Origin: Mizuhopecten yessoensis
Lineage: Eukaryota
Direction of reading: 5' to 3'
Assembly: GCF_002113885.1 (NCBI RefSeq)
Contig: NW_018480073.1
Coordinates: forward strand, 1-64,000
Length of the DNA: 64,000 bases
Positions within the stretch are counted from its first letter, which is position 1. Every line of letters begins with the position of its first letter. The position numbers and the translations under genes were made by a program. Below the pieces are notes generated by a model. It was not told where the DNA came from, searched no databases, and saw nothing but the letters and a program-made list of their open reading frames with translations. Below are positions 6,835 through 8,977 of the stretch, one piece after another.

Positions 6835-8977
6835 TGTAACACGAAGACACAAAACTCAGTCACAACAGTTCAGAAATACAAGCCTATATACGCAACGTGT
6901 ATACCATGAGGGTTACAGAGATTACGGACCCCATGGAGATACAGTTCCCAGATCACTTGGGTAGCCTTGAAACTTGTACCTAGCTTTATTATATATACAC
7001 TGTATGTTAAAAGTTATTGTATGGTAGGTAGGTTATATTTGAGGAACCTTGTCGGTAGGGATAATAATAATAATAATAATAATATTTATTCAGGTAAAAG
7101 GCAAATAATACACGTATATCACATTTTGCAGATTGGACATAAATATATATATATTATCACTGATGTTATGTATAAGTTATTTATGCCATAAAACTAGTTA
7201 TCAGTCAGGTGTTAAAACTGGATTGGATTAGATTAATTTAGGCCTTTACCTGGGATGATCTATAAAGCCACATTGTGGCTTAATTCCAATGGGGTCCCTT
7301 AGATCTAAATAAATCAATTCCATTCATAAAATAGTTACATAATTATATAGTATATATTAATAATTTGATAAGACTCTAAGACACTTCTTTTATAAAAAAA
7401 AAAAAGAAGATATAAAATGTTACATGTGCCATAGCCTATAATCAATAAAATAATGCTGGTAATTGAATGATATAAAATATGAAAAGATTAACATTATATT
7501 GGAATTTTTAACAATCAAAGATATATAGTATTAACTTCAAATGTTACTTACCAAAGGGCTGGTGATTGGGCCAATCCCTACCGACCAAACTCTCAGACAT
7601 TAACGTACATTAATAAAATTGATTGACATGTACTGGTATATAACGTATACTAATAAAAAACTAATACAAAGGATACATTTAAACCAATTGAATTTTATAC
7701 AAATCTGTTTGCTTTTTGCAGAAGAGGACTGTTGGTTGGGCCAGTCCCTACCGACCAAACTCTCTTACTGCATAAAGTAATAGTTATTGACATGATGTGT
7801 CTATGACACAACATCAAAAAAAGTAATATGTAAATAGGATTTAAGTCAAATGTATAATGATGTTGAATAATTCAATTGACAAATTTTAACAAGTTTTATT
7901 TAAATTAATTGCTACTTGCAGAAGAGGGCTGGTGGTTGGACCAATCCCTACCGACCAAACTCTCAGACTGCATATAAAGTAACAATATAGTATACTTTGA
8001 TAACAGTGTTTATGATAATATTTGAATTAAGAAGCAATAGAGTATATCACTGAAGTCTCACCATTACCCTTTCAAAAAATCACATTTTTGTTCCGATCTA
8101 AACTTTGATGTCAAATGTTGTTTAACCAGAATTTTGAATCTGTGTAAGTTGTTGGTTACCTTAATATTATCTGATAATGCATTCCAGTCCTTTATTGCAT
8201 TGTAAGAGAAAGATGTGGACTCTACCCCAGTTATATTATGAAAAAAGTTATATTGGCTTGATCTTGTAACCTCTTGTTGTTCCTTTCAAAACCTTCCTTC
8301 ATATAAGCTGGACATTTTTCATGAACAATTTTAAAAACATGGTTTAATCTCAGTTGAGCCACTCTATTACTTACATTCAACATATTTAATTTTTCCAGTT
8401 CTGCAAAAGTTATTCTTTTCCTCCAATCTAAATCCAAAATAATCCAAACAACCTTGTTTTGTGTAACTTGAAGTTTTTGTTTAAGATTTTTGGAGATACC
8501 CTCGTACCAAGATGAGCAAGCATAGTCAAAATGACATTGGAGATAGACTTTTTCTGGTTCGGTATAAAAAAATAGTCTCTGATTACCCCAATCACTTGGT
8601 AACTTATTGTTATATTTGTTGATAGGTAGACTATATGTGATTATGTGAATAACCTTGTCGGTAGGGATTGGCCCAACCACTTGGTAACCTATTGGAATTG
8701 TTTGTTATAGTAGATAGTGATATATATACTTAAGGTAAATAGAGTTCACAGGTGCGTGTCTTGTAATTGAATTAATATATTTATACCGGTCTGTATTAAG
8801 GGGTCCGGTACCTCGGTCGGCGCGGAAGTTGTGTAGTATTTATTGTATGCTATTGAGAGGGTGAATGTATTTATTGTGTTGTCCTGTATTGTAGGTTTCT
8901 CGGAGCTAGAGTAAAGAAAGATATATACATAAACAACTTGTCCGAGTTTTTATCTTAAAACTGAACAACCGGTGACA
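6835..8977 (+). mobile_element. Possible solo LTR (~620 bp) interrupted by the LINE at 7061-8580
   Basis: TGTAAC...GTGACA termini; TATA-like and AGTAAA signals in the 3' part; no clean TSD. Confidence 0.4.
7061..8580 (-). mobile_element. 5'-truncated CR1/L2-group non-LTR retrotransposon (ORF2 C-terminus, 3'UTR, (ATT)n tail)
   Basis: Minus-strand peptide CHFDYACSSWYEGISKNLKQKLQVTQNKVV...RLNHVFKIVHEKCPAY resembles the post-RT region of CR1/L2 ORF2; AATAAA-like signal then (ATT)n at 7061-7090; gat at both junctions. Confidence 0.85.

Follow-up and report, generated by a model that had tools for sequence, protein, structure and literature searches.

The window, a 64,000-nucleotide stretch of Mizuhopecten yessoensis contig NW_018480073.1, contains a LINE inserted antisense into the 5' leader fragment of an LTR retrotransposon, precisely within a short motif that the LINE also carries in its own 3' UTR. 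The inserted element, referred to here as family A, occupies positions 7063..8585 on the minus strand and is 5'-truncated, retaining a long 3' UTR and the end of ORF2. About 105 genomic 3' ends of this family exist, and a longer copy (L039) has an RVT_1 domain (E 9e-17), indicating that a reverse transcriptase ORF2 is present; on the basis of protein signatures, we take the family to belong to the CR1 group. The window copy ends in an (ATT)7 tail (7063..7083, minus strand), identical to that of other copies and flanked by a polyadenylation signal (7085-7090). At the opposite end, an open remnant of the ORF2 C-terminal region (8231..8585, minus strand) represents a protein that is ~63% identical between families A and F. 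Family A thus shows a short tandem tail, 5' truncation and a short target alteration with microhomology. The window copy is without a 33-nt ORF2 piece found in other family-A copies, at position 8541, and the alignments of 25 of 90 copies to it end at the equivalent of 7293-7307, a point that is either prone to truncation or the edge of a subfamily.

Three copies of a 24-nt hairpin motif lie in the 3' UTR on the minus strand: a tail-proximal copy (7562..7585), a middle copy (7732..7755) and an ORF2-proximal copy with a long outer stem (7932..7955), whose fold z-scores with flanks are -0.03, -2.96 and -3.90, respectively. Other long copies also have three, making this a trait of the family. Elsewhere in the window (2563-5058), about 3.4 tandem units of 739 bp, 99.7-99.8% alike, each hold 468 bp of the LINE 3' UTR (98.5% identical to 7183-7650), one motif included; this array is a recent local amplification derived from the inserted LINE copy.

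The host element and its split motif

The LINE separates the host leader into a left part (6907..7062, plus strand), 81-88% identical to four genomic relatives (L032, L034, L035 and L036), and a right part (8586..8765, plus strand), 82% identical to L032-L034. In these relatives, the leader stands between an upstream motif that we regard as primer-site-like and a downstream PNMA-type gag frame, which is why the host is called Gypsy-type. The PNMA profile (PF14893) matches L032 with an E-value of 2.6e-11 and L091 more weakly, and PNMA gag is present in both Gypsy-type hosts; an LTR pair and a long pol frame were not found in L233. The leader of the relatives contains up to five motif copies, exact or degenerate, and in the window a second motif of the host is intact at 8657..8680 (plus strand). 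An LTR-like stretch with inverted 6-base ends (8762-9030), with a tRNA-like primer site behind it, begins where host homology stops, which is also the border of a degenerate motif copy. Four other loci (L033, L347, L409 and L434) have deletions that end, on one side, within the motif or next to it.

The interrupted motif consists of a left half (7051..7062, plus strand), the 3' end of which is the inferred primer, and a right half (8584..8595, plus strand). They match the LINE repeat at 7562-7585 in 12/12 and 10/12 positions. The initial annotation had described a LINE lying inside a sequence carried three times in its own 3' UTR, and both the 22/24 match and the three copies are confirmed; comparison with uninterrupted host copies agrees, as the motif is whole at the equivalent place in L032, L034, L035 and L036. 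The 3-bp gat duplication reported for this site is also present, but it lies inside a LINE-templated GATTA at the 5' junction (8581..8585, plus strand), a word that belongs to the LINE's own sequence in 10/10 sufficiently long copies (nine identical, one with one change). Because GATTA serves both as duplication and as 5' microhomology, the length of the duplication cannot be fixed.

Contigs assembled from other public runs bridge both junctions, one spanning 6900-7180 and four the 5' junction. An empty allele was not seen in the contigs of 8/8 public runs, a type of data that cannot show absence, and the locus is covered by RNA contigs, from which strand and level are not readable.

A hairpin core common to LINEs and LTR elements

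The motif extends far beyond family A. Within three mismatches, 372 copies are found in the genome and none in the control, and the 136 copies examined fall into 11 flank clusters, comprising families A, F and J (CR1-group), families B, C, D and G (RTE-X-like), two Gypsy-type leaders and two unclassified types; the labels CR1-group and RTE-X-like are our assignments from protein signatures. A further family, Jx, has a 23-nt variant in 247 copies, so that, counting Jx, at least 12 flank types carry the core. The LINE and its host match in the window because the motif is a hairpin core common to many retrotransposon families. Wherever the strand can be told from an ORF or a tail, it is in sense orientation; it is present in one to five copies, and it lies either in the 3' UTR of a LINE or downstream of a primer-site-like motif, at a distance of 0.7-1.3 kb.

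The predicted fold is a stem with one bulged base, an A-A mismatch and a loop of 4-5 nt. All eight core pairs are kept in 13/13 representatives, with no compensatory changes, and the differences seen in the core are confined to the bulge, the loop or the A-A mismatch, or yield a G-U pair; this near-invariance is partly a product of the near-exact matching used to find the copies. The outer stem, by comparison, is family-specific in sequence and includes G-U pairs: it beats flank shuffles (p<0.01) in 6/15 representatives and is not significant in the other 9/15, Gypsy host copies among them. Fold z-scores are -6.2 for family B, -6.3 for C, -4.0 for F and -3.7 for G. The carriers are distant as proteins (28% identity in RT for F versus B, 30-41% for C versus B and G), and since protein identity across motif carriers is 28-63%, selection would have either preserved the core or favoured its exchange.

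Five loci scanned against Rfam 15 gave no match above threshold, one reaching E 0.63 and 23.5 bits against a cut-off of 90. Two metagenome scans returned zero and three matches, the latter without stem or LINE context, and viral contigs returned none. We found no description in the literature of the motif sequence or of a hairpin common to LINEs and LTR elements.

Several loci show the motif in other settings. At L232:2536-3780, the family-J motif hairpin is the unit of a 48-bp minisatellite with 26 copies. L185 and L205 are unclassified, related repeats bearing the motif, with a reversed motif-like copy ~380 nt upstream of the motif in L185. An open frame with hydrophobic stretches, presumably GPCR-like, starts just behind a family-J 3' end (L211:2349-2823).

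Family A does not target the motif

Insertion inside a sequence that the LINE itself carries led the initial annotation to suggest possible homology-guided targeting, under which the flanks of this family should be enriched for the motif. Genome-wide, 105 family-A 3' ends were counted and 100 listed, from which 77 loci were taken and 66 passed the anchor filter; with further loci, 95 ends were scored, two of which are the window itself. Among the other 93, the best match to the motif at the junction is 7/12, and the 200 nt beyond the tail are free of the motif in all of them. After removal of L007 (a duplicate of the window) and L005 (hidden flank), and with six ends treated as two shared-flank groups, one of them recognized by eye, 0/87 other independent ends lie at the motif (95% upper bound 3.4%). 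The insertion in the window is therefore one of 88 independent family-A sites, and family-wide targeting is rejected, as is enrichment of the motif in the flanks of the family.

Pattern searches give the same picture. Genome-wide combinations of a half-motif with the family-A tail recovered only the window locus or unrelated sites, and a looser pattern gave 260 matches versus 365 in the control, with no excess. The remaining loci from these searches were set aside as unrelated, intact or deleted copies, one set being judged from the listing alone; L320 breaks off at base 7 of the motif, and 1.5 kb of sequence showed no continuation. LINE 5' ends fall in hairpin cores in 2/24 cases, with no clear concentration. 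GAT ends make up 10/82 in family A, a ~6.6-fold enrichment. With 105 3' ends and 372 motif copies, ~0.001 family-A insertions inside a motif copy are expected by chance, a figure to be read knowing that the window event was chosen after the fact.

One apparent recurrence at the same base (L252/L007, G000:C4564) was rejected as an independent event: it is 85-92% alike to the window over both flanks, and its LINE is the sister of the window copy in the tree (support 0.87), as expected of a duplicate of the locus. This segmental duplicate (L295/L296/L299, G000:C4564) has acquired a later element of ~7.8 kb in the LINE tail. L005 was dropped with an element of the same kind at its tail, its true flank not being found.

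A second insertion at the same base

At L317 (G000:C5541), a family-C motif is split after GGGAT by a ~910-bp antisense LINE of family Jx, behind which the intact right half of the motif and then the C tail follow. The left-half pattern gave 38 matches (29 in the control), all of which were inspected; three of them, namely the window locus, its duplicate and L303/L317, are broken after GGGAT and have motif-family sequence on the flank. The search that first revealed L317 was built for this base. The window and L317 agree in cut base, strand and orientation (2/2) and involve different families; tail priming favours GAT ends, however, so that 'same base' is partly expected. The initial annotation had conceded that a single event could be coincidence; a second, independent one now exists.

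The 5' joints are probably alike as well. At the truncation point, 11/11 longer Jx copies have either GATTA (seven) or GGTTA (four), and at the L317 joint itself there is GA together with a few additional A-rich bases. Both inserts thus probably end at an internal GATT(A), a shared 5' annealing word. The Jx hairpin matches the left half of its target in 9/12 bases and has a different loop.

Of 705 Jx 3' ends in the genome, one is known at the motif, and none of the 29 scorable ends (30 sampled from the 705) is located there. GAT ends account for 8/29; given this measured preference, the expected number of the 705 Jx ends at that base and orientation is 0.002-0.012, rising to at most 0.03 when all LINEs are counted on assumed numbers. 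A tail-based search allowing other positions returned the same single Jx site, and searches for the other orientation and for the family-C tail gave no further event. The census of split motifs is incomplete: one genome search missed a known event, and another was dominated by a minisatellite, with 100 of its 194 matches listed. The second event is suggestive of non-random insertion, not proof of it. Non-random targeting, as initially proposed, fails for family A, but the idea survives in a different form, since a LINE of another family entered another motif copy with base and orientation unchanged.

What the hairpin may do, and how the insertions may have arisen

The core is shared across families in sense orientation, with family-specific outer stems in several of them; two insertions fall at the same base of it, and no family-wide targeting accompanies them. 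The reading we prefer, which we consider about evenly balanced, is that the shared hairpin core is an RNA signal, and that its DNA copy is likely a weak insertion hot spot and not a family target. The hairpin is likely the binding site of a common RNA-binding factor, as yet putative, and would serve RNA export, localisation or stability. A LINE particle with the binding factor may occasionally be caught at an exposed hairpin, in nascent RNA or in a displaced sense strand, and this capture would raise the local insertion rate with no need for RNA-DNA pairing. In the ordinary target-primed reverse transcription that would follow, the nick in the sense strand would fall after GGGAT, a point within the predicted loop; the 3' end so freed, AT or GAT, would pair with the LINE tail; and the cDNA would be closed by an internal AATC annealing to the GAT(T) overhang. 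Against this reading stands the fact that there are two events only, the first of them picked after the fact.

The most serious rival, which is possible but which we regard as rather less than probable, accepts the shared hairpin and attributes both insertions to chance, with the exact base set by tail microhomology. The absence of the motif at 87 independent family-A ends and 29 scorable Jx ends is what chance would produce, as is the abundance of GAT ends in both families, and motif copies make up a large share of the 335-bp host fragment that was hit. The low expectation for the second event (~0.002-0.03) argues the other way, as does the hairpin carried by both invading LINEs.

A stronger form of the hot-spot idea, in which LINE particles are steered to hairpin copies by a shared protein or by RNA pairing and cut the loop, so that rival classes knock out each other's signal, seems to us unlikely. 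One variant of pairing had been put forward in the initial annotation: the motif in the LINE RNA would pair with the minus strand, and the R-loop so formed would lay bare the strand that takes the nick and acts as primer. Both events have the strand and orientation that this model requires, and family A matches its own target in 22/24 positions, but other observations make it improbable. Jx matches the left half of its target in only 9/12 bases, with another loop, and both hosts belong to families other than the invader. Family A provides 77/136 of the motif copies examined, with hundreds of bases of extra homology, yet no own-family insertion was found; it entered a rare Gypsy copy instead of its own numerous copies. 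In the RNA, most of the core is also predicted to be base-paired (mean unpaired 0.29-0.36 versus 0.42 for the UTR), and the motifs are 479-849 nt from the tail. The weak Jx match, the lack of own-family insertions and the predicted pairing of the motif therefore favour a protein-binding hairpin over R-loop guidance. Least probable of all is a DNA hairpin that acts as a fragile site, where host nucleases make the break and any LINE with a matching tail fills it: the four deletions ending in or beside the motif and the intact C hairpin, which folds as DNA at about -24 kcal/mol, would fit, but the Gypsy host copy reaches only ~-6 kcal/mol as DNA with the nicked strand no better, both invaders carry the hairpin, and both junctions resemble ordinary staggered nicks.

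Comparison with known systems

R2, Tx1-clade elements and Dong place most of their copies at one fixed base within a repeated sequence. The two events described here agree in base as well, but they come from two families and tail priming favours this base; of the independent family-A sites, one in 88 lies at the motif, and among the 705 Jx ends one is known there.

The other comparisons extend as far as the accessible portions of the cited papers. [quoted passage not shown] Like the motif described here, CHS is a short non-coding hairpin that retrotransposon families of a single species have in common, that conserves an A/A mismatch and that has no assigned function (PMC5445492). The present motif differs in sequence, occurs in one to five copies, and is found in the 3' UTRs of LINEs as well as in Gypsy-type leaders, which retain a primer-site-like motif. 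SPRE, a post-transcriptional element of mammalian ERVs tested with reporters (Kitao et al. 2021, PMC8579622), is similarly a sequence-defined RNA element common to different retroelement families; it is described for ERVs only, whereas the present motif occurs in LINEs as well as LTR elements and is known from its sequence. The Egl-BicD localisation signals ILS (from the I factor), GLS and TLS (Singh et al. 2026, PMC13186709) offer another parallel. ILS is a bulged stem-loop of a LINE, read there by a host RNA-binding protein, and more than one copy per RNA helps in this group of signals (PMC13186709). Unlike these, which have shape and U-A pairs in common and not sequence, the core is G-C rich and nearly invariant. 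A 77-bp 5' stretch is common to ingi and L1Tc (PMC4758252).

For the insertion itself, the annealing pathway of the L2-clade element ZfL2-1 is comparable, with a short target duplication, 5' truncation and a 5' joint made by microhomology or extra bases (PMC4245944); that account, in its accessible part, reports no recurrent target site. Nothing on RNA-guided or hairpin-directed LINE insertion was among the literature matches listed, and none of the systems compared, as far as these sources describe them, has the same sequence or a reported link to insertion sites.

Significance

A near-invariant 24-nt hairpin in CR1-group, RTE-X-like and Gypsy-type elements points to one host factor on which very different retrotransposons would all depend, and the hairpin offers a short, ready probe with which to look for it. 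A repeated cut, if genuine, would tie an RNA signal to insertion-site choice in LINEs that are thought to insert nearly at random. Should the less likely steering reading also hold, rival classes of retrotransposon would depend on one hairpin and, by inserting into it, would disable each other's signal.
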